From Escherichia coli (GTDB taxonomy: Bacteria > Pseudomonadota > Gammaproteobacteria > Enterobacterales > Enterobacteriaceae), in the NCBI GenBank assembly GCA_902500125.1, contig GCA_902500125.1_4132.1: a stretch of 64,000 nucleotides of DNA. One strand, written 5' to 3'. The notes below the pieces were generated by a model. The model saw only the letters and a list, made by a program, of their open reading frames with translations. It ran no database searches and was not told the DNA's origin. Positions 9,189-48,842 of the stretch are shown piece after piece (position 1 is the stretch's first letter; each line of letters starts with the position of its first letter). Made by a program: the position numbers and the translations under genes.

Positions 9189-9830
9189 ATGACTAAGCAA
9201 GACATATTCAAAACTTTAATTGACATTTTGCGTCCATCAAAAACTCGTTGTGCGATGGAGTTTGATATTCCTTATGCTGAACGCGTAATCTTTCCACAAG
9301 TTAAAGCTGCTGGACTTACTTTGCTTGGAATGGGGATGTACTCTGTAGTAGTTGAACATAAAAACTATCCTGGACGTGCATTTAAAGTAACCACTTCACG
9401 CTGGGATGGTTTTCGTGCTTATGCAAAGTACTGCATTGAAAACGCAGGAACCAAGTTTCTTCCAGTGATCTACAGTGCCAACGAACAAGGAAACTTTGGA
9501 TGGTATGAGATGGACAAGTACTATCCTATAATTAAACAAAAAAATAATTATGATGACTTTGTTAGTACTAAAATTGGAGATTTATATTCTTATGCACATG
9601 CTGGTCAGTACGCTACTTCAGTGAATGATATGCGTGGAAATTCTGAAGAGATTGCTATTGCAACGGTCGCTGCTAACATCATGAAAGAGTTTCACGGGCG
9701 TTTTGTACCAGACATTCATTCAAGTAATGTGATGATGGATAAAGATGGCAATGTATTCATTACTGATCCTCTTTCGTGTGATGTACGTAGAGAAATACCA
9801 GTTACTGAAGAAGATCCAGTTTTTTATTGA
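9189..9830 (+). CDS. protein kinase-like fold protein (213 aa)
   Basis: ORF 9156 trimmed to ATG 9189 (GAGGA); G-loop-like LLGMGMYSVV, RAFKV lysine, catalytic-loop-like DIHSSNVMM, then ITDP. Confidence 0.55.
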   Translation: MTKQDIFKTLIDILRPSKTRCAMEFDIPYAERVIFPQVKAAGLTLLGMGMYSVVVEHKNYPGRAFKVTTSRWDGFRAYAKYCIENAGTKFLPVIYSANEQGNFGWYEMDKYYPIIKQKNNYDDFVSTKIGDLYSYAHAGQYATSVNDMRGNSEEIAIATVAANIMKEFHGRFVPDIHSSNVMMDKDGNVFITDPLSCDVRREIPVTEEDPVFY

Positions 9831-9891
9831 CAGAACTGATGTTCTGGTGTATTCTTAATAAACCATAAAAATTGCGGTAAAGGATAAAATC

Positions 9892-10173
9892 ATGCGTTCA
9901 TTTGAAAACTTAATAGGTAAGCATCTTTTATCTGAAATTGATGCAGACGTTAAAGAATTATCCAAATCAAAAAGTTACATTCATTTGGATGAACTGTTTA
10001 TTAAGTACGGTGAGATTGGTTTTAAGTCATTATTTGTTTTTACTATGAAAGTACATAGTTTAAAGTACTTCGATTTGAGTTCTAAAGATGGTGAACCGAA
10101 TCTATATTACATGTATTACCTTAAGAACAAAGATGAAGCTAATACATTACTCTCTGAATATATATTGGGGTAA
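9892..10173 (+). CDS. hypothetical protein (93 aa)
   Basis: ORF track; AAGGA upstream. Confidence 0.6.
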   Translation: MRSFENLIGKHLLSEIDADVKELSKSKSYIHLDELFIKYGEIGFKSLFVFTMKVHSLKYFDLSSKDGEPNLYYMYYLKNKDEANTLLSEYILG

Positions 10174-10175
10174 AA

Positions 10176-10514
10176 ATGGAACAATATTTTGAATTAATAA
10201 ACAAAGTATCATTTTATGTAGTATCTTTGGTTTGGGTGTATTATATGTTTTGCTATATTATTGCATTCTTCCGATATACTACTTTATATGAACGTATCTA
10301 CTATGATGCCCCAATTTCATTCTTGATGTTTTGTGCATGTACGTGGGGAATATTAGAAGTACTGATATGTGGGTATAGTACTGATGAATTAAATCTGGTA
10401 TCGGTGTTGACTGGGTTTTCATTTGTTGTTATGATAGCTGCCGTTCCAGTATGGTTGTTCTTTGGACTAGTTCATCGCATTGATATATGGCGTTCTAATA
10501 TCCCTGAAAAGTAA
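10176..10514 (+). CDS. multi-TM family protein (112 aa)
   Basis: 3-4 hydrophobic segments; C-terminal tail RSNIPEK shared by the family. Confidence 0.65.
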   Translation: MEQYFELINKVSFYVVSLVWVYYMFCYIIAFFRYTTLYERIYYDAPISFLMFCACTWGILEVLICGYSTDELNLVSVLTGFSFVVMIAAVPVWLFFGLVHRIDIWRSNIPEK

Positions 10515-10523
10515 GGATTGGAA

Positions 10524-10865
10524 ATGATTTATTACACTAACATGTTTGCCTATGCTGTTGCTTGCATTTACATTGTTTACTTCTTATTCGGTGGAGTACT
10601 GTGCTTCTTTAAGTACAAAACGTTGTTCAACCGAATGTACCCAAATCATCCAATTGTAGTTGTACTTTTGATTCTTTCAGTTTCTCAAATAATCGTTGAA
10701 ACTACAATGGGTATCAGTAGTGTACATTATAGTTTTGGCACTATAGTAATTATTACTATGCTTATTGCATACATTTTAGTACTTGGATATGGTATCTTTG
10801 GTAATATTGGTATGAAAATGTATCATCGAATTAAAACATTACGTGATAATCTACCGGAGCGTTGA
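10524..10865 (+). CDS. multi-TM family protein (113 aa)
   Basis: ORF-track TTG 10518 trimmed to ATG 10524 (AAGGA 6 nt upstream); tail RDNLPER. Confidence 0.65.
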   Translation: MIYYTNMFAYAVACIYIVYFLFGGVLCFFKYKTLFNRMYPNHPIVVVLLILSVSQIIVETTMGISSVHYSFGTIVIITMLIAYILVLGYGIFGNIGMKMYHRIKTLRDNLPER

Positions 10866-10866
10866 T

Positions 10867-11211
10867 ATGTATAATTTGAACCTAATCTCATATATTATAA
10901 CAACACTGTTTACATTCTATGCCTTTGTTGGTATAATCCTACTGTACTTTAAATTTTATAAAGTGTTTAACCGTTTCTATCCTTCAATGGAGAATGAGTT
11001 TTTCTTTGTGTTGTACGTAGGTTACACATTAATGGCTACATGTTTCACTGTAGCCGATGGTGTCATCGGCATTAAAACTGATTCCCCAAATGGTAGTACG
11101 CTGGTTGCATTTATTCTTACTGGATTCCTTGCAACTTATATTGCCTTCATTACAACATGGTCAGTGGTTGAATTTCTCTTGCGACTACGAAAGAATATGC
11201 CGAATCGATAG
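10867..11211 (+). CDS. multi-TM family protein (114 aa)
   Basis: ORF 10843 trimmed to ATG 10867 right after previous stop; tail RKNMPNR. Confidence 0.65.
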   Translation: MYNLNLISYIITTLFTFYAFVGIILLYFKFYKVFNRFYPSMENEFFFVLYVGYTLMATCFTVADGVIGIKTDSPNGSTLVAFILTGFLATYIAFITTWSVVEFLLRLRKNMPNR

Positions 11212-11220
11212 GAGACATAT

Positions 11221-11475
11221 ATGTTTGCGTTGCGTAATAAAAACACTAAAGAATTATTATGTATTGATACCGTATGGGATTGTGCGGGATCAACTACAGT
11301 TCTTGAAGAAGGAACTGGATATTGCGTGTTTGTTGTTCATGATAGGAATGAACTCGAATTATTACTTGCTGAGTTCAATGCTGGTGGTAATCCTAACAGT
11401 ACTGAATACCCTGAGATTATCAATCCAGCACCACCAGGCTCTTATGAAATTCTACAACTGTGGGAGTTGAAGTAA
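11221..11475 (+). CDS. hypothetical protein (84 aa)
   Basis: ORF track; AGGAG upstream. Confidence 0.6.
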   Translation: MFALRNKNTKELLCIDTVWDCAGSTTVLEEGTGYCVFVVHDRNELELLLAEFNAGGNPNSTEYPEIINPAPPGSYEILQLWELK

Positions 11476-11855
11476 TGCGTCAAATGCACAAAGTAACCGA
11501 GCTAAACAAGCGTCTGGTTAAACAATCAATGTTCGAGGATAAAGAGTCTTATTATAACTTTAAACGTGCTGTAGAGGCTGCTATCCACATTCAGAAGCTT
11601 AAAGAACGTGGTTGTATTATTCTGGAAAATGGGTCGGAAGTTGTAACGGATGACTTTAGTGTAGCGTTTGATGTTTCACCTGACGGGACGCTATCAATGC
11701 CCCGCTTAGGAACTGGAAACATGACTGTTTGGGTTGGCTTCACTATGGGGAATGTACCTGGTACTGTGTACGTAGATGATGCGGAATTGAAAGACAGTTT
11801 CAAAAACTTATCTTATCTTGAACCACAATACGCACATGAAATGAATTTATTTTGA
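11475..11855 (+). CDS. hypothetical protein (126 aa)
   Basis: ORF 11460 trimmed to ATG 11475 (TAATG overlap with previous stop). Confidence 0.6.
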   Translation: MRQMHKVTELNKRLVKQSMFEDKESYYNFKRAVEAAIHIQKLKERGCIILENGSEVVTDDFSVAFDVSPDGTLSMPRLGTGNMTVWVGFTMGNVPGTVYVDDAELKDSFKNLSYLEPQYAHEMNLF

Positions 11856-11856
11856 G

Positions 11857-11913
11857 TTGACAAACACATTCAGTACTGTATAATGCTTATCAAGGGGATG
11901 AACTTCTCATCCC
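11857..11913 (+). promoter_or_regulatory. promoter + 5' stem-loop cassette (PeSL-like)
   Basis: TTGACA 11857, TATAAT 11879, hairpin GGGATGA-acttc-TCATCCC 11895-11913, SD GAGGA, ATG 11932. Confidence 0.6.
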
Positions 11914-11931
11914 TACAATCGAGGAACTACC

Positions 11932-12486
11932 ATGATTACTTTTAAGAAAACTGCTAACCACATCCATGAAATCTACATTAACGGTCACAAAGCTGGCCTT
12001 CTTCGTTTACTCGCCCATCATCCTGATGTTACCGTATCTGATAATGAACCTAAAGATTGGCGTGTATTTTTCTTTGGAAAGTACAGTGATTTTCAAGTAT
12101 CAAACCTGAAGAACATTCGTTCAGTATGCACGTTAACTGAAATTAAAGAAAAGTTAGAAAAAGCATTGAAAACTAATCCAGATGGTGTTCTTCCACCTGA
12201 TAACTTTGTAGAGAAAGGTTATGCATTAGCTCATTTCAAAGATGGTACTATTCAATCTATCAGTACTGAATATGAATATCAATGGACTGAGTACTTCACT
12301 TATGGATCGCGTAATACATTGATGGCTTCACGTAGTAAATTGGAAGAAGTACTGACTCGTATGAATGAACGCGAACGTCAATTTTATGACAAACCAGAAA
12401 TGTGGAGTTCAACTTACATTGACCGTATTGACTATGTTATTATGACTCCAATCTTTGACACTGCTTACTATGATTCTTTGAAATAA
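11932..12486 (+). CDS. hypothetical protein (184 aa)
   Basis: ORF track; own promoter/hairpin/SD. Confidence 0.7.
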   Translation: MITFKKTANHIHEIYINGHKAGLLRLLAHHPDVTVSDNEPKDWRVFFFGKYSDFQVSNLKNIRSVCTLTEIKEKLEKALKTNPDGVLPPDNFVEKGYALAHFKDGTIQSISTEYEYQWTEYFTYGSRNTLMASRSKLEEVLTRMNERERQFYDKPEMWSSTYIDRIDYVIMTPIFDTAYYDSLK

Positions 12487-12497
12487 GGATAACTTAT

Positions 12498-12674
12498 ATG
12501 AAACTACGTACTCGTAATCGACTGATGGATGCACTGTACCATGAACAGCTTTCACTGAATGAAGTGAAGCGACAGTTAATGTACACATATCTGTTACCCG
12601 ATCGCATTGCAAAACAACGTGCTAAAGAATTGCTGAAAGAAGCAATCGAGTACTGGGAATCTGATTCGTACTAA
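12498..12674 (+). CDS. hypothetical protein (58 aa)
   Basis: Not in ORF track; ATG 12498 after AAGGA; MKLRTRNRLMDALYHEQ...; fills gap. Confidence 0.45.
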   Translation: MKLRTRNRLMDALYHEQLSLNEVKRQLMYTYLLPDRIAKQRAKELLKEAIEYWESDSY

Positions 12675-12702
12675 TTGTCACGTTAATTAAGTGAGGCGAT
12701 AA

Positions 12703-12954
12703 ATGAAAATTTTATTAGTTCTAATACTACTAATTGTTTTACCATTTACGTTAGTATCCCCTGAACTTGCATGGAATGTGTTTGTGTACTTAGTATGTAC
12801 TATTGTAGTAAATGGTATCTTGTTCTTAGTTCTATTCATAAATGGAATAGGACACGGTGGAGGATGGACCAGTACTGCTGATATTGTACATAAAACCACT
12901 ATGTCTTTATTTGTAATGTGGAATTTATTCTGGACTTGGTTTGTGTTCTTCTAA
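12703..12954 (+). CDS. membrane protein (83 aa)
   Basis: ORF track; GAGG upstream; hydrophobic. Confidence 0.6.
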   Translation: MKILLVLILLIVLPFTLVSPELAWNVFVYLVCTIVVNGILFLVLFINGIGHGGGWTSTADIVHKTTMSLFVMWNLFWTWFVFF

Positions 12955-12962
12955 TTAAAAAT

Positions 12963-13334
12963 ATGAATATAGATTTGAAAGGTGCAACCCGAACTGTCAT
13001 ACTCATTGGGGAATATGCTATCAAGATTCCAACCTTTAAAAGTTGGAAGCTATTCTTAACAGGGATGATAGCTAACCTCAATGAACGTTCGTGGATGCAG
13101 TACTCCAATCGTAGTGATAGTAGTATCTGTCCTACGTTGTGGTCATCATGTACTGGACTAGTAACTGTACAGAAACGTTGTAAGCCAGTGCAACATAGGG
13201 GTTTATTTTGGGTGGAGTTGTGTGCTTTAGCATTGAATTCAGAGTTAAGTACTGACTTCTTCTATTCAGATGCGAAGCCAGAAAACTTTGGGTATCTGTG
13301 TGGTAAGTTGGTTAAACTTGATTATGGAGATTAA
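12963..13334 (+). CDS. minimal protein kinase-like protein (123 aa)
   Basis: ORF 12918 trimmed to ATG 12963; GEYAIKIP (VAIK-like), DAKPENF (DxKPxN catalytic loop), KLDYGD (DFG-like); very short for a kinase. Confidence 0.5.
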   Translation: MNIDLKGATRTVILIGEYAIKIPTFKSWKLFLTGMIANLNERSWMQYSNRSDSSICPTLWSSCTGLVTVQKRCKPVQHRGLFWVELCALALNSELSTDFFYSDAKPENFGYLCGKLVKLDYGD

Positions 13335-13335
13335 T

Positions 13336-13605
13336 ATGTACGCATTGTATAATAAAGAAAAGAAACGATTTGCTAAGGTTGAAATTTCGATTGATACATT
13401 TGACATGTTGGAGTACTGTATTGTAACGGACTTATATGCTAACTTGTATTACGTTCTTGATGACGTATCAGTACTGCAACGATTGCTTGAGAATTCCAAA
13501 AGTCAATGCCAGGACATCCATGATGGTTCATCTTATGAAACACCTGAGTGTCCCCACGGGCAACTCGATGGGTATGAGATTGTTAAGTTGGGAATTGTTG
13601 AGTAA
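13336..13605 (+). CDS. hypothetical protein (89 aa)
   Basis: ORF 13270 trimmed to ATG 13336 (GGAG upstream), 1 nt after previous stop. Confidence 0.55.
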   Translation: MYALYNKEKKRFAKVEISIDTFDMLEYCIVTDLYANLYYVLDDVSVLQRLLENSKSQCQDIHDGSSYETPECPHGQLDGYEIVKLGIVE

Positions 13606-13611
13606 AAGGTA

Positions 13612-13640
13612 TTGACACCGTACTCATTTAACTGTATTAT
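13612..13640 (+). promoter_or_regulatory. sigma70-like promoter
   Basis: TTGACA 13612-13617, 17-nt spacer, TATTAT 13635-13640. Confidence 0.55.
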
Positions 13641-13670
13641 GTATGTACACCAACTAATGAGGAATCGGAA

Positions 13671-14030
13671 ATGGCATCTTTATCTGAAATCACTGAACTG
13701 AATCCACTGGTAATTAGTACTGTTCAACGCACCAAGACGTTTTACTTCCGTCCTGCTGATGGATGGAAACGTGGAATGAATGGTGACTATCGAGTACTGG
13801 AAGATTCGCTCATCGAGCGTATCAACTCTGAACTACAGAAGTATGAAGGTGTTAAAGTTGTCCGTTCAACTTCTCGTTATTTTGAGTACTACATTGAGTC
13901 TTCAACTGTAAATGAAAACTCATCATTCTCGGTGGATAACACTGATATTCTTCGCAATGCAGTTGGTTTGCTATGCAACATTGCAGAAGAAATGGGATTA
14001 ACTATCACCACAATGAGTGAGTTAGAATAG
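13671..14030 (+). CDS. hypothetical protein (119 aa)
   Basis: ORF track; GAGGA upstream. Confidence 0.65.
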   Translation: MASLSEITELNPLVISTVQRTKTFYFRPADGWKRGMNGDYRVLEDSLIERINSELQKYEGVKVVRSTSRYFEYYIESSTVNENSSFSVDNTDILRNAVGLLCNIAEEMGLTITTMSELE

Positions 14031-14040
14031 AATAAAAAAA

Positions 14041-14072
14041 GGGTTGACTTAGGTCGGCCCTTTTGCTATTAT
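14041..14072 (+). terminator. terminator/promoter cassette
   Basis: GGGTTGAC-ttag-GTCGGCCC + TTTT; TTGACT 14044-14049, 17 nt, TATTAT 14067-14072. Confidence 0.6.
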
Positions 14073-14100
14073 ATCTATATCGAAACGAAGGAGACAAACC

Positions 14101-14874
14101 ATGACCCGTCAAGAGAAAGCAATCCAAATCGAAAAAAACTTCAATAGCATGATGGCTGCACTGGAATGCCTTCTTGATACACAAGCTAACTCTATCAACT
14201 CTCTGATCGTATCAGGTAAAGGTGGTGTTGGTAAAACTTATAACGTTGACCAACGGTTGCAGAAAGCTGATGATAACTTTGAAATCGACTACAAGAAAAT
14301 CAGTGGTAAAGTAACTACTTTGGGTCTGTACGAAGCACTGTATCGTTCACGTCATGCCGCATCAGTACTGTTACTTGATGACGTTGATATCTTCTCTGAC
14401 GAGACTAATATTGATTTGCTTAAAGCTGTGTTGGATACGTCAGAGAAGCGTGTAGTTTCTTACGCGACTTCTGCTAAGTACCTGGAACAGCAGGGTATCC
14501 CTAAGCAGTTTGAATTCCGTGGTAAAGTAATCTTTCTGACTAACAAAAACCTGTCACAGATTGCTAAAGGTAAAAGCAGCTTAGCACCACACATCGATGC
14601 ACTGATCACTCGTAGTATCTTTGTTGACCTGCAACTGTTCACCAACGAAGAAGTGATGATTCACATTGAGAACATCATGAACAAAACTAACATCCTTGAA
14701 AACAATGGTGTTAACAAAAATGGTTGTAAAGCAATCCTGAATTGGATGCTGAACAACGAAGAACGTTTGCGTAGTCCATCACTGCGTATGCCAGTACTGA
14801 TCGCTGGTTTGTATAATAAATTCCCATACGATTGGGAATCAATGGCAGAGAATATGTTCCTTGAGAAAATTTAA
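14101..14874 (+). CDS. P-loop NTPase, AAA-type ATPase (257 aa)
   Basis: Walker A SGKGGVGKT; Walker B VLLLDDVD; AGGAG upstream. Confidence 0.8.
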   Translation: MTRQEKAIQIEKNFNSMMAALECLLDTQANSINSLIVSGKGGVGKTYNVDQRLQKADDNFEIDYKKISGKVTTLGLYEALYRSRHAASVLLLDDVDIFSDETNIDLLKAVLDTSEKRVVSYATSAKYLEQQGIPKQFEFRGKVIFLTNKNLSQIAKGKSSLAPHIDALITRSIFVDLQLFTNEEVMIHIENIMNKTNILENNGVNKNGCKAILNWMLNNEERLRSPSLRMPVLIAGLYNKFPYDWESMAENMFLEKI

Positions 14875-14882
14875 TTACATGT

Positions 14883-14911
14883 ATTGACAGTACTACACTA
14901 TGGTAGTACTA
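14883..14911 (+). promoter_or_regulatory. sigma70-like promoter
   Basis: TTGACA 14883-14888, 17 nt, TACTAT 14906-14911. Confidence 0.5.
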
Positions 14912-14941
14912 TAACTTAATATTCACCACCGGAGATACGAT

Positions 14942-15280
14942 ATGCTTGAGTTTTTTAATTCAGATACAATGATTAGTATTACTTTGATTTATCTGTTTGG
15001 TTTTTTCTTTTATCATGCACTGGTTGTAGTACTGTGGTATTTTAAAAAGAAAATTGTTTTTAAACTGTATCCAGTAAGGAATTCATCACTAGTTCTTTAC
15101 ACACTAGTTCAAGGTTTGTTTGCAATTGTTGGTCTTATGGCACACTTAATTTATTGTGCCAATCCTCACTTGAACTCAATCTCACAATATATTGTATTCT
15201 TTGGGTTGTTCATTTGGTTAGTTGTATACTTAATCCATCTCATTATTCATGGTAGAGATAAAATTCGCGGAGACTTCTAA
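14942..15280 (+). CDS. multi-TM family protein (112 aa)
   Basis: Hydrophobic segments; tail RDKIRGDF; first of 7 tandem coupled paralogs. Confidence 0.65.
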   Translation: MLEFFNSDTMISITLIYLFGFFFYHALVVVLWYFKKKIVFKLYPVRNSSLVLYTLVQGLFAIVGLMAHLIYCANPHLNSISQYIVFFGLFIWLVVYLIHLIIHGRDKIRGDF

Positions 15281-15627
15281 TGTTTGAAGCTTATCTTGAG
15301 TTTTTAAGGAGTAGTTCAGTTGCACATTCACTTGCAGGGATTATTCTAACAACTTATGTATCATTTTGGGTAGTTATGTTTCTAGGATGGTATTTTAAAC
15401 GACAATTCTATAAACGTAATGGTGAAGATTTTATGAATTCTGCCATTAATCAATCGTTGTTTGCATCAACATTGATTGCATGTATTGTAGCAACACTCAC
15501 AGGAAAGGTACTACCAGCTTTTTCCGCAGTTTACGGCACACTTGGGATGATATGTTTAACTTTTATATTGACCATTAAAATTTGTTGTGTTATGATTGAA
15601 CTTCGAAATAAGATACCGGAGGAATGA
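15280..15627 (+). CDS. multi-TM family protein (115 aa)
   Basis: TAATG overlap; tail RNKIPEE. Confidence 0.65.
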   Translation: MFEAYLEFLRSSSVAHSLAGIILTTYVSFWVVMFLGWYFKRQFYKRNGEDFMNSAINQSLFASTLIACIVATLTGKVLPAFSAVYGTLGMICLTFILTIKICCVMIELRNKIPEE

Positions 15628-15962
15628 TGGAGTACTTTATTGATTTACTGCCGTGGTATATGAAAGTTAGTACCATGTACTATATTATTAGTGCTGGATT
15701 CTACTTTCTGATGTGGTTCTTTAAACGACCAATTTCAGTATTCATCGCTGATAACATGCTGCAATTAAAATTACACGCATGGTTTGGTATGGCGATGATT
15801 ATGCCTATTATTCACTACTCAATGATTAGTAGAGGTTTCCGTTCTAATGGTGAACCAATTGTATTAGTATTCTATTGGGGTTCAACTATTGCATATGTAA
15901 GTTTGTTGTTGTTCCCAGTCGTTCATAAGTTACGTGCTAAAGTTCCTGATGCGAGGTACTAA
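15624..15962 (+). CDS. multi-TM family protein (112 aa)
   Basis: ATGA overlap; tail RAKVPDARY. Confidence 0.65.
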   Translation: MMEYFIDLLPWYMKVSTMYYIISAGFYFLMWFFKRPISVFIADNMLQLKLHAWFGMAMIMPIIHYSMISRGFRSNGEPIVLVFYWGSTIAYVSLLLFPVVHKLRAKVPDARY

Positions 15963-16276
15963 TGGATATAGTAACATTGATTTACACGTTGTATTCATTC
16001 TATTTCATTATGTGTTGGGTTGGATTTTTATTTGTACTCAAGATGTTTGATTATGTTGAAAAACAGATAAAAGAATTTTGTATTCCTTTTATCGGTTCAA
16101 CCATTATTAGTGTTTCTTGTGTGTATTTTTTGGTTTTTGATCCACCAGATAACACTGCAATGATTGACTTGATGTTACTACCAACAACTGTTACTTTTTT
16201 ATGTAGTCTGATGCCGCCGATTAGCCGTGGACTAACAGAATTTAGACGCAATCAAAAGCGTAAACGAGGGATGTAA
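15962..16276 (+). CDS. multi-TM family protein (104 aa)
   Basis: TAATG overlap; basic tail RRNQKRKRGM. Confidence 0.65.
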   Translation: MDIVTLIYTLYSFYFIMCWVGFLFVLKMFDYVEKQIKEFCIPFIGSTIISVSCVYFLVFDPPDNTAMIDLMLLPTTVTFLCSLMPPISRGLTEFRRNQKRKRGM

Positions 16277-16644
16277 TGGAAATTGCTCTTATTATCTTAA
16301 CTGCTATGCTGTTTATTAGTACTGTGGTTATAATTGGTAAATTCTTTTGTGTATCATTTTTAGAAACGGTATACGATGAAATTGCTGATGATTATGAATT
16401 ACAAGCCGGATTTTTCATTACGTATTGGCTTAGTTTATTTTGTCTAGTCATTGCTTGGATTTTACATATCTTTAAATGGGGTATGGTAGACGGTGATCCT
16501 ATTATGGCAATTATTGTTCTAGTGTTTGGTATCCTTGGTGGTGCAGTGCATAATCTAATGGTTATCTGGCAAACTGTTCAATATGTTTTGGTTCCCTATT
16601 TCGAAAAGATGCACAGTACAATTAAAAAACGTAAACGAGGTTAG
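16276..16644 (+). CDS. multi-TM family protein (122 aa)
   Basis: TAATG overlap; basic tail IKKRKRG. Confidence 0.65.
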   Translation: MEIALIILTAMLFISTVVIIGKFFCVSFLETVYDEIADDYELQAGFFITYWLSLFCLVIAWILHIFKWGMVDGDPIMAIIVLVFGILGGAVHNLMVIWQTVQYVLVPYFEKMHSTIKKRKRG

Positions 16645-16645
16645 T

Positions 16646-17008
16646 ATGAACGGGATAGAATTATCTTTCGTTGGTCAATTACTAGTAATGGCGTATACAT
16701 TTATCTTCTCACTGAATGCATTCGTGTGCATTGGGAAGTACTTCCATAAGCGACCATTATCAAATATATATGATGTAATCCAAAAGAGATATAGTCCAGC
16801 ATATACTGTGTTGGGTACAGTATTCAATTTTGGTTTTATTGTATTAATAATTGGACTGTTCACATCCTCTTTGAATACAATAACCTTCGGTCTTATGATA
16901 TGTTCATTGGTATTAGCCGTAATTATATGTTGTTTAGTACTGCACCTTGTGGTACTATTGTATATAAAGATCTCTGAAATCCACCAACGTTTGGGTATGA
17001 GGAAATAA
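16646..17008 (+). CDS. multi-TM family protein (120 aa)
   Basis: ORF 16583 trimmed to ATG 16646, 1 nt after previous stop; tail HQRLGMRK. Confidence 0.65.
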   Translation: MNGIELSFVGQLLVMAYTFIFSLNAFVCIGKYFHKRPLSNIYDVIQKRYSPAYTVLGTVFNFGFIVLIIGLFTSSLNTITFGLMICSLVLAVIICCLVLHLVVLLYIKISEIHQRLGMRK

Positions 17009-17009
17009 T

Positions 17010-17381
17010 ATGAGTTACCGTGAGATATTTTCCATTATTTCAATTATTATGTTCAGTACTGGAACACTGGTATGGTTATTATACTTCTTCTGTATTAATC
17101 CAGTGTATAATATGTTATGTAATATTAAATCAAGTGCCGGATATATCACTTTTATGGTCTTTATGGGATATTATTGTCTAAGCATTTTAGGTGTTGTTTT
17201 GGTTGTTATATTTGATGTGGGACCAAATAGTGATGGTATGGAAATACATGAATTAATAACCATGTTTGGATGTATGATACCAACAGCACTACTGTTTGTA
17301 GCTACTGGTAGTGGATTGATAAAATTATATAATTATTTAAAATCCATTCATAATTCCATTCATAATAAGCGTATGTCATAA
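17010..17381 (+). CDS. multi-TM family protein (123 aa)
   Basis: 1 nt after previous stop; tail HNSIHNKRMS. Confidence 0.65.
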   Translation: MSYREIFSIISIIMFSTGTLVWLLYFFCINPVYNMLCNIKSSAGYITFMVFMGYYCLSILGVVLVVIFDVGPNSDGMEIHELITMFGCMIPTALLFVATGSGLIKLYNYLKSIHNSIHNKRMS

Positions 17382-17388
17382 TAAAAAA

Positions 17389-17410
17389 TCCAGTACTATT
17401 AAGTACTGGA
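17389..17410 (+). terminator. hairpin built from AGTACT half-sites (weak terminator)
   Basis: TCCAGTACT-atta-AGTACTGGA; A-run before, no T-run after. Confidence 0.35.
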
Positions 17411-17423
17411 TGTATAAGGAGTT

Positions 17424-18086
17424 ATGATGAAATCAAAATTAGGTTTGTTTTATAAAAACTATTTTGTTAAACAACGTAAATTTATAAAAAAATATTTCTC
17501 TGGCGAGAAGTCTAGTCCTATAATCTTTAAAAGACCAAGTTATAATACTTACTTAGCTGGTGCTAAACAGTCTAAGAAATTTATTACTCTTTTACATAAA
17601 AACAAAATTAAAGCTTCTTATGTTGAAACGAGAAGAAACTCATCAATAACTCCTGGTGATTTTATTGAGTACGGATGTTTCAATATTAAGTACAATGATA
17701 ATACATACTTTATGGATATTGATTGTAATACATCCAATCTTTTTAACATTGTAGTAAATCCATTAAAACAATATAATGTTTATGGTGATTCTATTATCAA
17801 ATTAATCAAAAACAAAGATAGCTTTGATTTTGAAATAAATGTTTTAGATGATAATTTTGACGAAGTACCAGTAAACCCTGAAATCTGTGATATTTTAAAC
17901 AGTTTAAAAGGTAGTACCTACACTATATCATCTGATTTAATGTTTCAGTACTCATTAATCCATAAAGATATTGAAAAGTATATTGAATGCTCCAAAATTT
18001 TGAATTATCTTTACGATGAATTTAAAAAGAGTTCTAAAATAACCGCATACACTTTGTACAATATTCCTAAAATGGTGAATCTTTGA
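17424..18086 (+). CDS. family C protein, long form with basic N-terminus (220 aa)
   Basis: AAGGAG upstream; motif SDLMFQYSLIHKD; 3' end overlaps convergent minus-strand ORF by 20 nt. Confidence 0.65.
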   Translation: MMKSKLGLFYKNYFVKQRKFIKKYFSGEKSSPIIFKRPSYNTYLAGAKQSKKFITLLHKNKIKASYVETRRNSSITPGDFIEYGCFNIKYNDNTYFMDIDCNTSNLFNIVVNPLKQYNVYGDSIIKLIKNKDSFDFEINVLDDNFDEVPVNPEICDILNSLKGSTYTISSDLMFQYSLIHKDIEKYIECSKILNYLYDEFKKSSKITAYTLYNIPKMVNL

Positions 18087-18490
18087 CAAATACAGTACTG
18101 GCAACTCCACCGTCTGTAACATATTGTCCAGTACTGTAAATTTGTATACCATCGGTTAAGTAAGTTCTGTATAAAGTTGCTGTAACATATACGTTATTCA
18201 TATTCATCTCTATTGGTAGTACACATTTGGTATAGGCTGAGACATCTGTTTGTGTACCTATACCTAATTGACCTGCGTTATCGCCTGTGTTATAACCAGT
18301 TGCGTAAACACCTAATGAAGTTATAATATGATTAGAAAAATATGAATAACCCAAACTCTTGAGATTCTCTACTGTACAACGTACCATCTGACATAAGGGC
18401 AAAAACTGTTGTATCAGATGAAGCTATTTTTGTTACAGAAGGTTGTATGTTCTGTTTTGATGATGTGATAATTCTTCGAAAGGGTAGCAT
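18067..18490 (-). pseudogene. decayed/frameshifted mini-member of the MLPF-propeller family
   Basis: ATG 18490 after GGAGG gives MLPFRRIITSS...DGTLYS, then stops. ORF 18402..18067 in another frame matches the C-terminus of 26650..27816 (GQLGIGTQTDVS...TDG..YSTG). Total about 140 aa versus 370-410. Confidence 0.55.
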
Positions 18491-18555
18491 TGTATCCTCC
18501 AAATGTAAATCGTTATTATATTTAGGACAAAAAAATGCCAGTACAAAATACTGGC
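18491..18555 (-). promoter_or_regulatory. terminator + late-type promoter/SD cassette (variant)
   Basis: Minus strand: GCCAGTAttttGTACTGGC + T7, then AAATATAATAA...GGAGG before ATG 18490. Confidence 0.5.
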
Positions 18556-18561
18556 TTTATT

Positions 18562-19767
18562 TTATATACCACGACTGGGTATTTTATATAATTGAAATTT
18601 AGTGTAATAATCAGAAACTGTTGTACCTGTCGCTTGTGGGATATAGCCACTCAAATACACATCCCCTTGATTATCCATATACACATTTGTACATTCACTT
18701 GGACAGAATAACTCGATGCTGCCAACTTTAGGTGCATCAACTGGAACTACAAATGTAGTACTTGATGTTGTATTACCGCGACCGAGCCTACCATATGTGT
18801 TTATACCACACATATAAAGTGAATTGTTAGTTTTAACCGTAAGACCACCATATGTTAATGAATTTGATTTCATTATCATATCATCTGATATTGGTAGAGT
18901 GGAGATTGTAGATAATACTGTCCCTGATGAAGCGGCTGAACCATTACCCAAGTTACCTTCCGATTGAATCCCACTTGCACGAACTGTATATGTATTATTC
19001 GTGTTGTGTTTAGATACAACCCATGATGCACTCCCACCAAGTTCATAATGTATAACAGTATTGTTGGCTAATGCACCCATTTGTGTCCATACTCTAATGT
19101 TAGTTTCACCATTACTTATACCAAGTGAACCCCATGTGTTTTGACCAGTTACCCAAAGTGTTTTATCAATTTTCTGCACAATCACTGCACTTGAACCTGT
19201 TTTTACACTATCCACATTCGTATTAATTGAAGTAAATGTTGATAATCTTGTGGTTGTGTTATTACCAAAATATCCCTGTGTATTTGCCCCCATTCCATAT
19301 AGCGTACCATTTTGAAGTAAAACAAAAATACCCTCCCCTACAATTTGAATGTCCTTAATTTGCGACAATTGTGTTGCATTGAATACTGATGTAAAATATG
19401 AAGTACAATCAGTATAAGTACTGACAGTACTTAATCCTGCACCAATAGCTCTACCTACGCCACTGTAATAAAATTTATTATCTTCGGTTTGGATTAAATT
19501 AAAAGAACCTTGGGCTGTTCTAAAACGTTTTACATTTTGGTATATTAAAGTCCACTCTTTTACTTTCGCATTAGGTACACCATTTCCGAATCCATAGTTT
19601 TGTGAACTAGTTCCACCTATACCCATTAAGTCTCCATTTTTATATAATAGTAAGAGTGCTGTTGCTGGAATAACTGACGCACTATAACCATTGTAAATAA
19701 AGATTTCTTTCACTTCAGGAACTTTCATTTTATTTGCGTATTTTATCATCCTTGGAAAAGGTAACAT
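18562..19767 (-). CDS. MLPF-tagged RCC1-like beta-propeller repeat protein (401 aa)
   Basis: Starts MLPFPRMIKYAN; repeats such as GANTQGYFGNNTTT, GQNTWGSLGISNGE, GINTYGRLGRGNTT. Confidence 0.75.
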   Translation of the reverse strand: MLPFPRMIKYANKMKVPEVKEIFIYNGYSASVIPATALLLLYKNGDLMGIGGTSSQNYGFGNGVPNAKVKEWTLIYQNVKRFRTAQGSFNLIQTEDNKFYYSGVGRAIGAGLSTVSTYTDCTSYFTSVFNATQLSQIKDIQIVGEGIFVLLQNGTLYGMGANTQGYFGNNTTTRLSTFTSINTNVDSVKTGSSAVIVQKIDKTLWVTGQNTWGSLGISNGETNIRVWTQMGALANNTVIHYELGGSASWVVSKHNTNNTYTVRASGIQSEGNLGNGSAASSGTVLSTISTLPISDDMIMKSNSLTYGGLTVKTNNSLYMCGINTYGRLGRGNTTSSTTFVVPVDAPKVGSIELFCPSECTNVYMDNQGDVYLSGYIPQATGTTVSDYYTKFQLYKIPSRGI

Positions 19768-19831
19768 AAAATCCTCCTTTATTCATTATACTATATTTAA
19801 TCAAAAAGAAAAGCCAGTGTTAAGTACTGGC
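19768..19831 (-). promoter_or_regulatory. terminator + late-type promoter/SD cassette
   Basis: Minus strand: hairpin 19831-19813 + T-run, TTAAATATAGTATAATGAATAAAGGAGG, ATG 19767. Confidence 0.6.
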
Positions 19832-19838
19832 ATAAAAT

Positions 19839-21008
19839 CTAAGCAGAAGGCATATTCTTCATCTTAATAAATGAAAATTGTGTACCAGTATTTGTGGTTT
19901 GATCAGTAAAATATGAATTACTCCCAGCCCAGTACAATTCATTATTGACTATACAATATATAACAGAACTCGAACTCTGTGAATACACACGACTTATATT
20001 TGATTGTTCTACTCCAGTACTGAACTGAACTACCCCCAACTGTGAACTTGGTATTACATTAGTTGGTCTACCTAAACCGTTAACACCCGCTCCACCACCA
20101 CATGTATATACTCCAGTACTATCAGTTGATATATTAACATAACCATTTCCGGCATTTTCAAATAGTATTTCACTGGGAACAACACCAAATCCTGTAAGAT
20201 CTATTTTCCTGAATGTAGTGTAAACAGTAGAACCACCAACACCTCTTCCACCATAATCATTAGAACCAGCCATATAGATACTATATCCAGAACTTCCTAA
20301 ACATAATAACTGTACGTTGTCATATAAAATTTGCATAGATATAACGTTATCAGGAATACTCAATACCGTAAAAGTAGTTAAAGAAGAACTTCCAATATTA
20401 CTACCAACCGATGTTCCACATCTGTAGTACTTACCGCCTTTTATATAATGGAACGATGAACCGCCTAACTTATGTGCTCCTATTTCACTTACCCCAGTAT
20501 CTATAAGAATGGGAGATACAACTTTGTTATTAACACCTAACTCAGATCTACTGTTCATACCGAACCCATATAAACGACCATCTAACATCAATATTAGTGT
20601 ACTACCTGACGTACCTGCTGACGTAAATTCTATATTCTTTATTTGCGACACGTCAATACCTACAAATAATGAAGTTACTTCAGTCCAGTTAACATATGAA
20701 CCACTAGCCCCAAAATATCCACCCATGTATAGTCCGGCACAATATAACTTATTATCAACCGTCTTTATTAATGTACCGGATACACACGCCCAAAAATCAT
20801 CAACTTCATAGGGTACATGTACCCAACCACCTAATACATCACTATCATTCCCTGTTCCTAATTTGTAGTTCGATCCAGAACCACGCATATACATATTCCC
20901 TGTACTATAAAGTAATCCGACATGTAATTGACTACCATCCAATTTCTTTATTTCGGGAAGAGTTGGTTTAATATTTCCGTACTTTAACATTCTTCCAAAA
21001 GGTAACAT
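19839..21008 (-). CDS. MLPF-tagged RCC1-like beta-propeller repeat protein (389 aa)
   Basis: ORF 21074 trimmed to ATG 21008 (MLPFGRMLKYGNI) after AAAGGAGG; GMNSRSELGVNNKV, GAGVNGLGRPTN. Confidence 0.75.
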   Translation of the reverse strand: MLPFGRMLKYGNIKPTLPEIKKLDGSQLHVGLLYSTGNMYMRGSGSNYKLGTGNDSDVLGGWVHVPYEVDDFWACVSGTLIKTVDNKLYCAGLYMGGYFGASGSYVNWTEVTSLFVGIDVSQIKNIEFTSAGTSGSTLILMLDGRLYGFGMNSRSELGVNNKVVSPILIDTGVSEIGAHKLGGSSFHYIKGGKYYRCGTSVGSNIGSSSLTTFTVLSIPDNVISMQILYDNVQLLCLGSSGYSIYMAGSNDYGGRGVGGSTVYTTFRKIDLTGFGVVPSEILFENAGNGYVNISTDSTGVYTCGGGAGVNGLGRPTNVIPSSQLGVVQFSTGVEQSNISRVYSQSSSSVIYCIVNNELYWAGSNSYFTDQTTNTGTQFSFIKMKNMPSA

Positions 21009-21072
21009 AATTCCTCCTTTATTCATTATACTATATTTAATACAAATAAGAAAGCCAGTACAAAGTACTGGC
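21009..21072 (-). promoter_or_regulatory. terminator + late-type promoter/SD cassette
   Basis: Hairpin GCCAGTACtttGTACTGGC (21072-21054) + T-run, TTAAATATAGTATAATGAATAAAGGAGG. Confidence 0.6.
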
Positions 21073-21086
21073 ATAGTTTTATAGTA

Positions 21087-22196
21087 TTATTTCGGCATTG
21101 TAATTGCAGACCATGAGTTCGTGGTAATAGGACCTGGCACATACAAAAAAGAACCACAAGCATAAATTTGATTATTACCATCAAATACTATACTAAAATG
21201 TGCACATGTGTATAATGCTGATTTTTCTGGGTTGTAATTATCTAAAGTTAGTGTATTGGTGAATCTACTCAAACCACCACCAGAACCATTTCTACCAAAT
21301 TCACCAGTACTGTATATCTTTCCTTCGGTTGTTGCGTACATATTAACATATGAAGTCGCACTTGATTTTGATATTTTATGTATCTTACTATCAATAGTAG
21401 TGGAGTTAAATGCAAATGGATATACTTGTGTGTTCGTTGTAATACCGTTACCAAGTTGACCAATATACTGCCAACCTGCGTTGTATATATTGCTGGCTGA
21501 ATAAGCAAGAGTACCAGTACTGTTACCACCAAATAGTTTAACACTTGTTAACCTGCTTACTAGTGTAGTATACTGTCCGGGACTTACGCCAAGTGAACCA
21601 TATCCACTGCTCCCGCAACCGAGAAGTTCATTATTTGATGTTAATATTAATGTGTTATTCTGTGTACCCAATATATCAAGGACTGTATTAGCTCCGGTAT
21701 TAACAACTGAAACAAAAGTACTCTGAACCGTGGAATACCCACCACCGAGTGAATAGTTACCATTCATGCCTCTACCATAAACAATCGAACCACTAGCATC
21801 AACGTAGTGCATTGTATCTGCACCAATTGATATCATTTTAATATTAGATATATGTGGAAATGAAGAAGTAACATTCAAACCACCCAACGGAATCATAGTA
21901 TTTCCTGTGCCTAATTGTGTGGTAACTCCATGCATTATGAATTCTTCACCCTTGAGATAAAGAATATTGTACGCACCAGCCCATGCATCAGTAACACCTT
22001 CTGAAATTAATATCCAAGTATTTCTTGTTGCTGTATTTTCAACGTTTAACTGCAAATACGTATTAACCCCACAACCATAAAGTGAGCCATCGCCATAGAG
22101 GACGTACAAATTATCAAGACCGCACAGAACTTTCTTTATCTTTGGAGCTTCAGGTGCAATATTTCCGTACTTAACCATTCTAGCAAAAGGTAACAT
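21087..22196 (-). CDS. MLPF-tagged RCC1-like beta-propeller repeat protein (369 aa)
   Basis: MLPFARMVKYGNI; GWQYIGQLGNGITTNTQ, GSSGYGSLGVSPG, GMNGNYSLGGGYS; SD overlaps stop of upstream gene. Confidence 0.75.
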   Translation of the reverse strand: MLPFARMVKYGNIAPEAPKIKKVLCGLDNLYVLYGDGSLYGCGVNTYLQLNVENTATRNTWILISEGVTDAWAGAYNILYLKGEEFIMHGVTTQLGTGNTMIPLGGLNVTSSFPHISNIKMISIGADTMHYVDASGSIVYGRGMNGNYSLGGGYSTVQSTFVSVVNTGANTVLDILGTQNNTLILTSNNELLGCGSSGYGSLGVSPGQYTTLVSRLTSVKLFGGNSTGTLAYSASNIYNAGWQYIGQLGNGITTNTQVYPFAFNSTTIDSKIHKISKSSATSYVNMYATTEGKIYSTGEFGRNGSGGGLSRFTNTLTLDNYNPEKSALYTCAHFSIVFDGNNQIYACGSFLYVPGPITTNSWSAITMPK

Positions 22197-22206
22197 AAAT
22201 TCCTCC

Positions 22207-23386: not shown

Positions 23387-23394
23387 ATTCCCTC

Positions 23395-24570: not shown

Positions 24571-24634
24571 ATTTCCTCCTTTATTCATTATACTATATTT
24601 AATACAAAAAGAAAAGCCAGTACTCTGTACTGGC
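24571..24634 (-). promoter_or_regulatory. terminator + late-type promoter/SD cassette
   Basis: Hairpin 24634-24616 + T-run, TTAAATATAGTATAATGAATAAAGGAGG. Confidence 0.6.
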
Positions 24635-24641
24635 CTATATT

Positions 24642-25379: not shown

Positions 25380-25445
25380 AATTCCCTCCTTTATTCATTA
25401 TAATATATTTAATACAAAAAAGAAAAGCCAGTACAAAGTACTGGC
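25380..25445 (-). promoter_or_regulatory. terminator + late-type promoter/SD cassette
   Basis: Hairpin 25445-25427 + T-run, TTAAATATATTATAATGAATAAAGGAGGG. Confidence 0.6.
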
Positions 25446-25452
25446 ATAGTAT

Positions 25453-26580: not shown

Positions 26581-26642
26581 ATTTCCCTCCTTTATTCAAT
26601 ATACTATATTTAATCAAAAAAAGCCAGTACTCAAGTACTGGC
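26581..26642 (-). promoter_or_regulatory. terminator + late-type promoter/SD cassette
   Basis: Hairpin 26642-26623 + T7, TTAAATATAGTATATTGAATAAAGGAGGG. Confidence 0.6.
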
Positions 26643-26649
26643 ATATCAA

Positions 26650-46435: not shown

Positions 46436-46438
46436 GTA

Positions 46439-47359: not shown

Positions 47360-47384
47360 GGCGGGATCAGTTCCCGCCTTTTTT
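47360..47384 (+). terminator. rho-independent terminator
   Basis: GGCGGGA-tcagt-TCCCGCC + T6. Confidence 0.75.
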
Positions 47385-47398
47385 ATAGGACAAACAAA

Positions 47399-47653
47399 AT
47401 GATTAAGGTTCAACTATATAAAGATAACATCTTACGGGTACACTATAAAGCACCGAAGAGAATCATCACAAAGGCCGTACAGCTTGCTAATGAGTTTATT
47501 AATGGTAACCTATTACCAAGGAAGTTAAGCAACGGGAAACTGCGTGTAATCGACGTGGACACTAACAACAGGATAGTAATCGAGAACACAGGAAAAATAA
47601 ACCTTTATGAGCATCAACAATACAATAAGAAAATAAAACTAATATCACGTTGA
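47399..47653 (+). CDS. hypothetical protein (84 aa)
   Basis: ORF track; AGGA upstream. Confidence 0.6.
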   Translation: MIKVQLYKDNILRVHYKAPKRIITKAVQLANEFINGNLLPRKLSNGKLRVIDVDTNNRIVIENTGKINLYEHQQYNKKIKLISR

Positions 47654-47678
47654 CAGTACTCAAATGTTTTAGTATTAT
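47650..47678 (+). promoter_or_regulatory. sigma70-like promoter (about 60-bp unit repeated at 47924)
   Basis: TTGACA 47650, 17 nt, TATTAT 47673. Confidence 0.6.
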
Positions 47679-47706
47679 GTACACATACCAACACGGGAGA
47701 AACAAA

Positions 47707-47925
47707 ATGAAATTATCTAAAATCGAAAAGAAAACTATTGATGAAGCAGTTAAGCACGGTTATACCTTTCGTAATGATTCACATTTTACCAATTTTCAAC
47801 AGGGGTATCGTACTATTAAAAAACTAATTGACAAAGGTTTATTAGTTGAAGTCAATAATGGGAACGGTATCGAGTATCAGCCAACCCAAGACGCATTATC
47901 TTTAAAGAAATATAATATTATCTAA
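47707..47925 (+). CDS. hypothetical protein (72 aa)
   Basis: ORF-track TTG 47650 trimmed to ATG 47707 after GGGAGAAA. Confidence 0.6.
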   Translation: MKLSKIEKKTIDEAVKHGYTFRNDSHFTNFQQGYRTIKKLIDKGLLVEVNNGNGIEYQPTQDALSLKKYNII

Positions 47926-47954
47926 TTGACAGTACTCAAATGTTTTAGTACTAT
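47926..47954 (+). promoter_or_regulatory. sigma70-like promoter (repeat of 47650)
   Basis: TTGACA 47926, 17 nt, TACTAT 47949. Confidence 0.55.
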
Positions 47955-47983
47955 ATGTACATACCAACACGGGGAAAAACAAA

Positions 47984-48226
47984 ATGATTACTTTAGAAAA
48001 ACGTATCAAAGAAACTACATCGCTGGTGGAATTGTTAACAGTACTCAAATGTAAAACAACACCATTCAGCACGCCGGACTTTATTAATATGGTTGATGTT
48101 AATGGTCGCTATCGTATCACGGTCGAACAAGGAGCGGCGAAAGTATTCAGTACTAAAAACACGAAGGAAGTGATCCACGCCGTTAATGTTAAAAAAGTAG
48201 TTGCCATTGATAGTAAAGTACTGTAA
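47984..48226 (+). CDS. hypothetical protein (80 aa)
   Basis: ORF track; GGGGAAAA upstream; contains Chi at 48022. Confidence 0.6.
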   Translation: MITLEKRIKETTSLVELLTVLKCKTTPFSTPDFINMVDVNGRYRITVEQGAAKVFSTKNTKEVIHAVNVKKVVAIDSKVL

Positions 48227-48257
48227 TATAGTTTCATTAACTCAAGGAGAACATGCA

Positions 48258-48842
48258 ATGCGTAATTATACTAAATTCATCCGTACACTGTCAGAAATGG
48301 AAACCAACAAAGAGATCCTTTCAGCTTGTCGGTTAGCTGGCCTGGAGATCATCGGTGCTGGTTCTTCCCGTATAGTTTTCGCTTTAAATGATCGGTTAGT
48401 GATTAAGGTCGCGAATTGTGATGCGGGTGTAGAACAAAATGAAACTGAATGTAAGGTATGGAATTTTTTAGACTATGACCGCCCTCAGTTGAAACAGTAC
48501 TTTGCAAAGGTGCATATGCATTTATGCGATCCTGATAATATGTTTATCGTTATGGATCGGTTGAGTACTGCAAGCAAAGGTAGTGTGAAGCACGTAAACG
48601 CGTGCAATGAATTAAAGTACAATATTAAACGTAATGCAATCGAACGCCAGCACCGCTTTGCTGATGCACTACAACACGTCGATGATACATTATCAACACT
48701 AACGATAAGAGATATCAGAAAACAGAATATCGGCCAGGATCGTAATGGCCTTATTAAAGTACTTGATTACGGTTTAACCTGCAATATCTGGAATCAGTAC
48801 TATAAAAAGCGTGATGTGGCAGCAAGTAAGGTAACACGATAA
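48258..48842 (+). CDS. protein kinase-like fold protein (194 aa)
   Basis: Trimmed to ATG 48258 after AAGGAG; G-loop IIGAGSSRIVF, LVIKVA lysine, IRDIRKQNIG catalytic-loop-like, VLDYGL (DFG-like). Confidence 0.55.
   Translation: MRNYTKFIRTLSEMETNKEILSACRLAGLEIIGAGSSRIVFALNDRLVIKVANCDAGVEQNETECKVWNFLDYDRPQLKQYFAKVHMHLCDPDNMFIVMDRLSTASKGSVKHVNACNELKYNIKRNAIERQHRFADALQHVDDTLSTLTIRDIRKQNIGQDRNGLIKVLDYGLTCNIWNQYYKKRDVAASKVTR

Follow-up and report, generated by a model that had tools for sequence, protein, structure and literature searches.

A stretch of 64,000 nucleotides from contig GCA_902500125.1_4132.1 of the Escherichia coli assembly GCA_902500125.1, in the following called the window, carries three small plus-strand genes, K1, K2 and K3, whose products show catalytic signatures of protein kinases. 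The window derives from a jumbo coliphage of the genus Asteriusvirus (121Q/G17-like). The phages 121Q, PBECO4, G17, Sharanji, fEgEco12 and vB_Ec-M-J match its kinase regions at 90-98% identity, and they match the window at 28.5-35.5 kb and at 50.5-56.5 kb to the same degree. It has a G+C content of 35.6% and is dense in small plus-strand open reading frames (ORFs) of unknown function, with a minus-strand block of RCC1-like genes as the exception. Here, the nature of the three proteins is described, in particular that of K2, a truncated variant of the protein kinase-like (PKL) fold with a length of only 123 residues.

The three kinase-like genes and their relationships

The three ORFs and every kinase motif quoted in an earlier, sequence-only reading of this DNA were confirmed at their positions (Table 1). 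This reading had also preferred certain start codons over those of longer, mechanically delimited ORFs, and it was right to do so, as the homologues share the same methionine and M1 is invariant in two of the homologue alignments. Ribosome-binding sites precede K1 (GAGGA) and K3 (AAGGAG), and no clear Shine-Dalgarno sequence was found for K2. For K1, the start at 9189 is furthermore favored because the −10 box of the upstream promoter-like site overlaps the alternative ATG at 9156. Judged at the sequence level, the kinase motif matches are not due to chance, given the E-values obtained with PHROG, the BLASTP match of K1 to T7 gp0.7 and the match of a K3 profile to kinases in the PDB. A profile and motif scan of all six-frame ORFs revealed no fourth kinase-like gene in the window, and an NCBIfam scan of the kinase-like proteins resulted in no significant match.

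K1 matches phrog_15752 (E 4e-91; annotation "protein kinase; inhibitor of host transcription...") and phrog_2828, the T7 gp0.7 family (E 8e-17). In BLASTP it aligns to residues 68-230 of T7 gp0.7 with 26% identity (E 5e-9), the glycine-rich loop (G-loop; LGxGxxS), the β3 lysine, the DxHSxN motif and the ITDP(V/L)S motif being in register, and a tblastn search with K1 returned 775 phage records, chiefly kinases of Autographiviridae. In 20 K1 homologues the residues G47, G49, K66, D175, H177, N180, D193 and P194 are invariant. Both features that distinguish kinases of the T7 gp0.7 type, a DP motif in place of DFG and a DxHxxN catalytic loop, are present in K1. The protein terminates 20 residues past D193 and the C-terminal shut-off (SO) domain is missing; K1 is still of the T7 gp0.7 type, because the SO domain is not needed for membership in the kinase-domain family. 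We therefore regard K1 as a genuine homologue of T7 gp0.7 (T7K) without the shut-off domain, and the comparison with T7 gp0.7-type phage kinases drawn in the sequence-only reading holds for K1, which is a homologue of an experimentally validated kinase. The kinase domain of T7K comprises residues 1-242 with the DFG-equivalent DPV at positions 213-215, and the jumbophage homologues of T7K listed in the T7K paper of 2026, including that of Escherichia phage G17, are also devoid of the shut-off domain (PMC13645617). K1 is already known as a kinase: it is annotated as "protein kinase" in 121Q, and the T7-kinase homologue named in the Sharanji paper is WNN14432.1, the K1 orthologue (PMC11895373).

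K3 is recognized weakly by the Pfam model Pkinase (PF00069; E 0.0035, 17.2 bits vs. a gathering cut-off of 31.7), as are six of 11 members of its family, and PADLOC gave weak matches to PD-T4-6 kinase models (E ~1e-3). A profile built from 11 homologues matched MKK4 and MKK7 in the PDB from the G-loop to the DFG motif with E-values of 1.5e-4 to 4e-4, and the 251 sequences found with this profile at E<=1 are mostly kinases. Residues G33, G35, K50, E64, D152 and D170 show no variation in the K3 family, and N157 shows almost none. K3 is accordingly predicted to be a diverged Hanks-type kinase core. Also in this case a kinase label exists in some records of K3-type genes (fEgEco12, as "PRP4"; ph0011; K64-1; fENko-Kae01), and the Sharanji paper calls the K3 orthologue "another protein kinase" (PMC11895373). 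As K1 and K3 are already recognized as kinases in the genus, K2 alone is new.

K2 and K3 both match phrog_4301, with E-values of 5e-43 and 4e-41, respectively. Comparing the two families with hhalign resulted in a probability of 95.4% (E 1.9e-8) over 117 columns with all motifs in register; direct BLASTP of K2 against K3 found nothing, i.e., the link is visible through profiles. No relationship was detectable between the K1 and K2 families. The description of the genes as "three paralog-like" mini-kinases is thereby only partly sustained, since K2 and K3 are remote homologues while the family of K1 has no detectable sequence relationship to them and forms an independent lineage; the genes appear to represent two PKL lineages rather than three paralogues. 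K2 and K3 are assigned to a phage lineage derived from Hanks-type kinases, with PHROG 4301 as their actual family, and K1 belongs to the T7 gp0.7 lineage. PHROG 4301 has no assigned function, and its members are labelled as kinases in a few GenBank records (pEa_SNUABM_5, AH04, K64-1, fENko-Kae01, fEgEco12 and ph0011).

Common to all three proteins are the G-loop, the β3 lysine, an acidic αC partner, the Asp and Asn of the catalytic loop and the metal-binding Asp. They end soon after this Asp (Table 1), too early to accommodate the activation segment, the P+1 loop and the helices αF-αI, which are missing from all of them. For the same reason none of them is a full bilobal kinase. Of the bilobal kinase fold considered in the sequence-only reading, the kinase-like part is seen in the K2 model, while the C-terminal lobe (C-lobe) is only a stub in K1, K2 and K3.

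Table 1. Kinase-like genes, their motifs, promoter elements and K3 orthologues in related phages (positions refer to the window unless a phage is named).
Feature	Position	Strand	Description	Residues after metal-binding Asp
K1	9189..9830	+	213 aa; orthologue of 121Q gp205 and Sharanji WNN14432.1; G-loop G47-V54; Lys66; D175-I-H-S-S-N180; D193-P-L-S196	20
K1 motifs	9327-9350; 9378-9389; 9711-9734; 9759-9776	+	GMGMYSVV; AFKV; DIHSSNVM; ITDPLS	
K2	12963..13334	+	123 aa; orthologue of 121Q gp215 and Sharanji WNN14422.1, both 'hypothetical'; G7-A-T-R10; Lys21 (YAIKIP); Glu41; D103-A-K-P-E-N108; D120-Y-G122; one residue; stop	3 (one after DYG)
K2 motifs	12981-12998; 13014-13031; 13269-13292; 13317-13331	+	GATRTV; YAIKIP; DAKPENFG; LDYGD, then stop codon	
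K3	48258..48842	+	194 aa; orthologue of 121Q gp308, Sharanji WNN14351.1 and fEgEco12 g044; G33-A-G-S-S-R38; Lys50; Glu64; D152-I-R-K-Q-N157; D170-Y-G172; 22-residue tail	24
K3 motifs	48354-48377; 48396-48413; 48711-48731; 48762-48776	+	GAGSSRIV; LVIKVA; DIRKQNI; LDYGL	
T7K kinase domain				~29
Cassette directly upstream of K1	9125..9160	+	Stem holds TTGACT; 18-nt spacer; TATGAT	
Sigma-70 consensus	11857..11884	+	TTGACA-16-TATAAT; 12/12 match	
Cassette immediately 3' of K3	48854..48889	+	Hairpin and promoter	
vB_Ec-M-J	1-21,525		Terminal repeat; K3 orthologue at 16,690-17,274	
fENko-Kae01	1-19,736		Terminal repeat; contains K3 orthologue	
fEgEco12	16,161-16,745		K3 orthologue within terminal repeat	

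The 123-residue protein K2 and its family

K2 carries a G-loop, a β3 lysine, an αC glutamate, a DxKPEN catalytic loop and a DYG motif within about half the length of the Pkinase domain, so that the remark of the sequence-only reading on a protein shorter than the canonical kinase core was correct. In Ser/Thr kinases, subdomain VIb takes the form of this DxKPEN loop (Hanks and Hunter). The catalytic Asp is preceded by Ser and not by Arg, which fits the lack of an activation loop. Searches against Pfam, NCBIfam and PADLOC gave no match for K2. A structural model calculated with AlphaFold2 (AF2) using 14 homologues reached a mean predicted local distance difference test score (pLDDT) of 89.5 and a predicted template modelling score (pTM) of 0.79. 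It starts with an N-lobe of two strands around the G-loop, β3 with Lys21, a long αC helix with Glu41 and two further strands, and it continues with an αE-like helix, the catalytic loop, two short strands and DYG. The arrangement of N-lobe, hinge, αE, catalytic loop and β7-β8-DFG found in the PKL superfamily is present in the model, and the protein has the β3 Lys, the αC Glu, the catalytic Asp/Asn and the metal-binding Asp. The αF helix and the complete C-lobe, which are part of the universal PKL core, are absent, i.e., K2 is a truncated PKL variant and not a canonical member.

With the K2 model, Foldseek found TTK at a probability of ~1 and a query-normalized TM-score (TMq) of up to 0.62. The structural matches include small PKL enzymes, namely Ark1 (score 7.3), Bud32 (7.3 and 6.1), OspG (6.8) and HopBF1 (6.0), and in BFVD the model matches many uncharacterized phage proteins of 117-235 aa. 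A profile of 145 K2-family sequences aligns D103-x-K-x-x-N and DYG to HSDLKPANF...IDFG of TTK; the TTK hits of this profile are sub-significant (E 0.05-0.17), the alignment with E 0.05 being concordant with the fold match, and a profile of 14 sequences found nothing in the PDB. The kinase-like interpretation is thus supported for K2 by the predicted fold and by the alignment of its catalytic residues with TTK. K2 may be the smallest kinase-fold protein known.

An exhaustive hidden Markov model search over representative clusters at 50% identity identified at least 1204 clusters of the K2 family at E<=1e-3, 638 of these at E<=1e-10. Members occur in T4-like phages and in phages of Aeromonas, Erwinia, Ralstonia and Pseudomonas. 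Among the 149 best hits the median length is 123 aa, a length that K2 keeps across the genus Asteriusvirus. Moreover, in 86% of the 145 aligned members the C-terminus lies no more than three residues from the DYG glycine; the truncation is thus selected and defines the family and is not due to gene decay. In these 145 diverse homologues K21 and E41 are invariant, G7, R10, V12, P23, F31, G34, N38, G65, G110 and D120 are conserved to at least 90%, and K105 is conserved at ~85%. At position 103, about two thirds of the family carry Asp and about one third carry Glu, and Asn and Ser are found at position 108 in the same proportions. Pfam kinase models match none of the 145 members, there is no Pfam or NCBIfam model for the family, and no Pfam domain was found in the extensions of the few longer members. 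Nearly all records annotate K2 as "hypothetical", few GenBank records call K2-type members kinases, and the family is undescribed in the searchable literature on mini or smallest kinases and on phage kinases.

K2-family genes sit among small accessory genes, and six diverse loci have no conserved neighbour gene. In one metagenomic phage the gene lies near a Tad2-like anti-Thoeris gene. In the T4-like phage JS10 (locus L004, 2477-3854) it is positioned 1 nt upstream of rnlB, encoding RNA ligase 2, and phage NC-G has an RNA ligase annotation coinciding with or next to its K2-family match; from this adjacency, an RNA-related function may be suspected for some members. In the window, K2 is directly followed by the gene 13336-13605 (phrog_8563), whose ribosome-binding site lies within the last K2 codons. 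This gene and 11221-11475 are two paralogues of PHROG 8563 (unknown function, ~85-89 aa). The idea of a split kinase, in which the gene 13336-13605 supplies the missing C-lobe, was rejected, because the neighbours of the K2 homologues are unrelated in the six loci and because the second phrog_8563 copy is not located beside a kinase gene. At 13606-13670, 3' of the K2 unit, denV (endonuclease V/pyrimidine dimer glycosylase) and one small ORF are missing compared to 121Q and Sharanji.

Promoter elements, terminal repeat and surrounding genes

Nine intergenic cassettes on the plus strand (3277, 6518, 7280, 9126, 14039, 42461, 45849, 48856 and 51609) combine a hairpin with a promoter following the pattern AAAGG(G)TTGACTnnGGTC...CCTTTT and a subsequent −10-like box TATTAT or TATGAT. 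These nine same-strand copies compare to 0.3 expected by chance. The cassettes look like combined modules of terminator and early promoter, and the PeSL cassettes of T4-type phages resemble them. One of them lies directly upstream of K1, and the one immediately 3' of K3 probably serves as the terminator of the K3 unit and as the start of the following one. The perfect sigma-70 consensus in Table 1 is a candidate promoter of the five-gene unit 11932-13605, which contains K2. In the region of K3, sigma-70-like sites are in excess (22 vs. 12.7±4.4), three of them being of perfect consensus.

In three phages the K3 orthologue is located within an experimentally supported direct terminal repeat of ~20-21.5 kb (Table 1). 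For fEgEco12, the terminal repeat has a size of 20,993 bp and was confirmed by restriction digest (PMC13070987). Based on homology to vB_Ec-M-J and fEgEco12, the repeat-equivalent region of the window ranges from ~32-33 kb to ~53 kb. The window continues from this stretch into unique sequence on both sides, so that the source record appears to hold the repeat as one collapsed copy or to begin at another point.

Several further features were observed in the surroundings. Just 3' of K1, three successive ORFs of 112-122 aa (10176-11211) are apparent paralogous multi-pass membrane proteins, one tested ORF of which matches phrog_19285. At 9119-9188 the window is without three small genes that are present in 121Q and Sharanji, i.e., 121Q gp202-204, which are situated between a virion structural protein and K1. 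The tandem block at 18562-27816 with genes of 245-411 aa is the sole long minus-strand block in the window; all six genes tested match PHROG 4219 (E 1e-43 to 3e-106), an RCC1-like 'regulator of chromosome condensation' repeat family, and the proteins of the block are rich in Ser/Thr/Tyr (26%). A part of the stretch 28500-35500 matches 156 phage records at 80-90% identity; the range of phages matched, with unrelated groups such as Campylobacter phages, Phapecoctavirus and Vequintavirinae, is much broader than for the rest of the window. Finally, 61537-62085 and 62358-62924 are adjacent paralogues of PHROG 19795 (unknown function, ~180 aa), and a tRNA scan found no tRNA genes.

Proposed function and comparison with known kinases

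We propose that K1, K2 and K3 act as constitutively active early kinases of low specificity that serve host takeover and anti-defence, and we assign this a probability of roughly 0.6. The kinase function is predicted from homology and conservation and, for K2, from the fold model. The genes would be transcribed early from host-type promoters, and K3 would be expressed from the terminal repeat, possibly the first part of the genome to reach the cell interior; early expression driven by the host RNA polymerase is supported, while not proven, by the cassette, the promoters and the repeat location of K3. The products would fold into constitutively active kinases having neither an activation loop nor an Arg before the catalytic Asp. 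Without a peptide-binding groove they would phosphorylate Ser/Thr residues on many host proteins with little sequence preference, and this broad phosphorylation would disable host machinery and defence systems, as was demonstrated for T7K. It is from T7K, which is hyperactive although its kinase domain ends ~29 residues past the metal-binding Asp, that we infer constitutive activity and the groove-less state for K1-K3. ATP binding, protein-kinase activity, promiscuity, early timing and an anti-defence role would accordingly be properties of all three.

Several observations weigh against this proposal. K2 has no αF helix and extends only one residue past DYG, compared to ~20-29 residues past the Asp in K1 and T7K. 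In characterized PKL enzymes αF anchors the catalytic and regulatory spines, and we know of no characterized active PKL enzyme that lacks αF or is as small as K2. As the Asp/Asn positions of the catalytic loop are occupied by Glu/Ser in about one third of the K2 family, a part of the family may be non-catalytic or may perform a different chemistry. For K3, the AF2 model (11 homologues) is poor with a pLDDT of 50, the Lys of the catalytic loop is not conserved and Gln replaces Asn in one homologue. The promoter matches are consensus hits, from which an early timing is presumed. Moreover, the early genes of T7K-encoding Autographiviridae were reported to be depleted in Ser/Thr/Tyr; the small plus-strand genes of the window contain ~17-18% S+T+Y with no depletion visible, a value for which there is no proper baseline.

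Different explanations have to be considered, in particular for K2. It might be an incomplete kinase, as possibly also K3, that becomes active when a partner, i.e., a second K2 molecule in a homodimer or a host protein, completes or stabilizes the C-lobe. Such a protein would resemble OspG, a minimal effector kinase activated by E2~ubiquitin, and the partner would set its specificity. We consider this unlikely, as no conserved neighbour gene able to supply the missing part exists in the six loci, the K2 monomer model is confident and compact with its pTM of 0.79, and T7K is functional with a similarly short C-terminal stub (PMC13645617). The extreme truncation, the Glu/Ser substitutions in about one third of the K2 family and the variable catalytic loop of the K3 family would also be explained if K2 and/or K3 were pseudokinases, acting as ATP- or ligand-binding scaffolds, decoys or sponges without phosphotransfer. 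Pseudokinases typically lose at least one of the canonical catalytic residues. The K2 of the window has every one of these, with Lys21, Glu41 and Asp120 being invariant or nearly so in the family, and D152 and D170 of K3 are invariant, which makes this explanation slightly less likely still.

The substrates of the K2 family might alternatively be other than proteins. Candidates are nucleotides, small molecules that act as defence signals and, as for the archaeal PKL RNA kinase Ark1, RNA ends or 2'-OH groups. This appears improbable, a shade more so than the preceding explanations: the adjacency to RNA ligase is not conserved at other K2-family loci or in the window, the DxKPEN loop of K2 is the form found in protein Ser/Thr kinases, while a DxxxxN loop lacking the Lys is usual in small-molecule PKL kinases, and TTK, PknB and STE kinases are the best fold and profile matches of K2. 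Least credible of all is that K2 is the decaying fragment of a longer kinase gene or a chance resemblance of motifs. Its very short length, the lack of a clear Shine-Dalgarno sequence and the label "hypothetical" nearly everywhere could be taken in this sense; it is refuted by the family data, i.e., by at least 1204 clusters at E<=1e-3, the median of 123 aa among the 149 best hits and the 86% of 145 aligned members whose C-terminus is within three residues of DYG, by the invariant core residues and by the confident fold prediction for a protein of 123 aa throughout the genus.

Going beyond the proposal of constitutively active early kinases, the K2 family might consist of catalytically active kinases of ~120 residues, composed of N-lobe, catalytic loop and DFG stub, and jumbo phages of this kind might deploy up to three groove-less promiscuous kinases of two lineages as a layered arsenal against defence and for host takeover. 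We put this forward tentatively, with the odds somewhat against it. If true, K2-type proteins would be the smallest functional enzymes with a protein-kinase fold and would set a new lower size limit for it, and αF and the rest of the C-lobe would be dispensable for phosphotransfer. An active K2 would furthermore support the structural rule that removal of the substrate-binding C-lobe leads to promiscuity, and as a minimal scaffold it would be attractive for engineering. With an inactive K2, there would instead be a large phage family of ATP-binding pseudo-enzymes, whose existence would have to be explained as well. In either case, phages widely carry a 123-residue type of protein that Pfam and NCBIfam fail to detect, and Asteriusvirus combines a T7K homologue with two truncated kinase cores of another lineage.

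Among the known systems, T7K is closest to K1. It is a hyperactive kinase without preference for a sequence motif that disarms many bacterial defence systems by pervasive phosphorylation, and the study describing it left the jumbophage homologues, including K1, uncharacterized (PMC13645617). Like K1, T7K and its homologue JSS1_004 end shortly past the metal-binding Asp, and gp0.7 is an early gene of T7. Unlike K1, T7K possesses the C-terminal shut-off/DNA-binding domain that steers it to nucleic-acid-binding proteins. The DFG-equivalent is DPL in K1 vs. DPV in T7K, and the inhibitory autophosphorylation site Ser216 of T7K is a Ser in K1 and Ala/Gly in most homologues of the jumbo clade.

K2 and K3 have the order and identity of the core motifs in common with Hanks-type Ser/Thr kinases such as PknB, TTK/Mps1 and the STE-group kinases MKK4/MKK7, i.e., the G-loop, AxK, the αC Glu, DxKPEN (K2) or DxxxxN (K3) and D(Y/F)G, and Hanks-type kinases (PknB, TTK, STE) are their best fold and profile matches. 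They differ from these in lacking the activation segment, the APE motif and αF-αI and in having an invariant Arg in the G-loop (GxTR in K2, GxGSSR in K3), and their catalytic Asp is not preceded by His-Arg as in Hanks-type kinases, the sequence in K2 being Y-S-D. To the small PKL enzymes OspG/NleH, HopBF1, Bud32 and Ark1, K2 shows no detectable sequence relationship. These enzymes comprise 170-220 residues and keep C-lobe helices past the DFG-equivalent, whereas K2 has 123 residues and no such helices.

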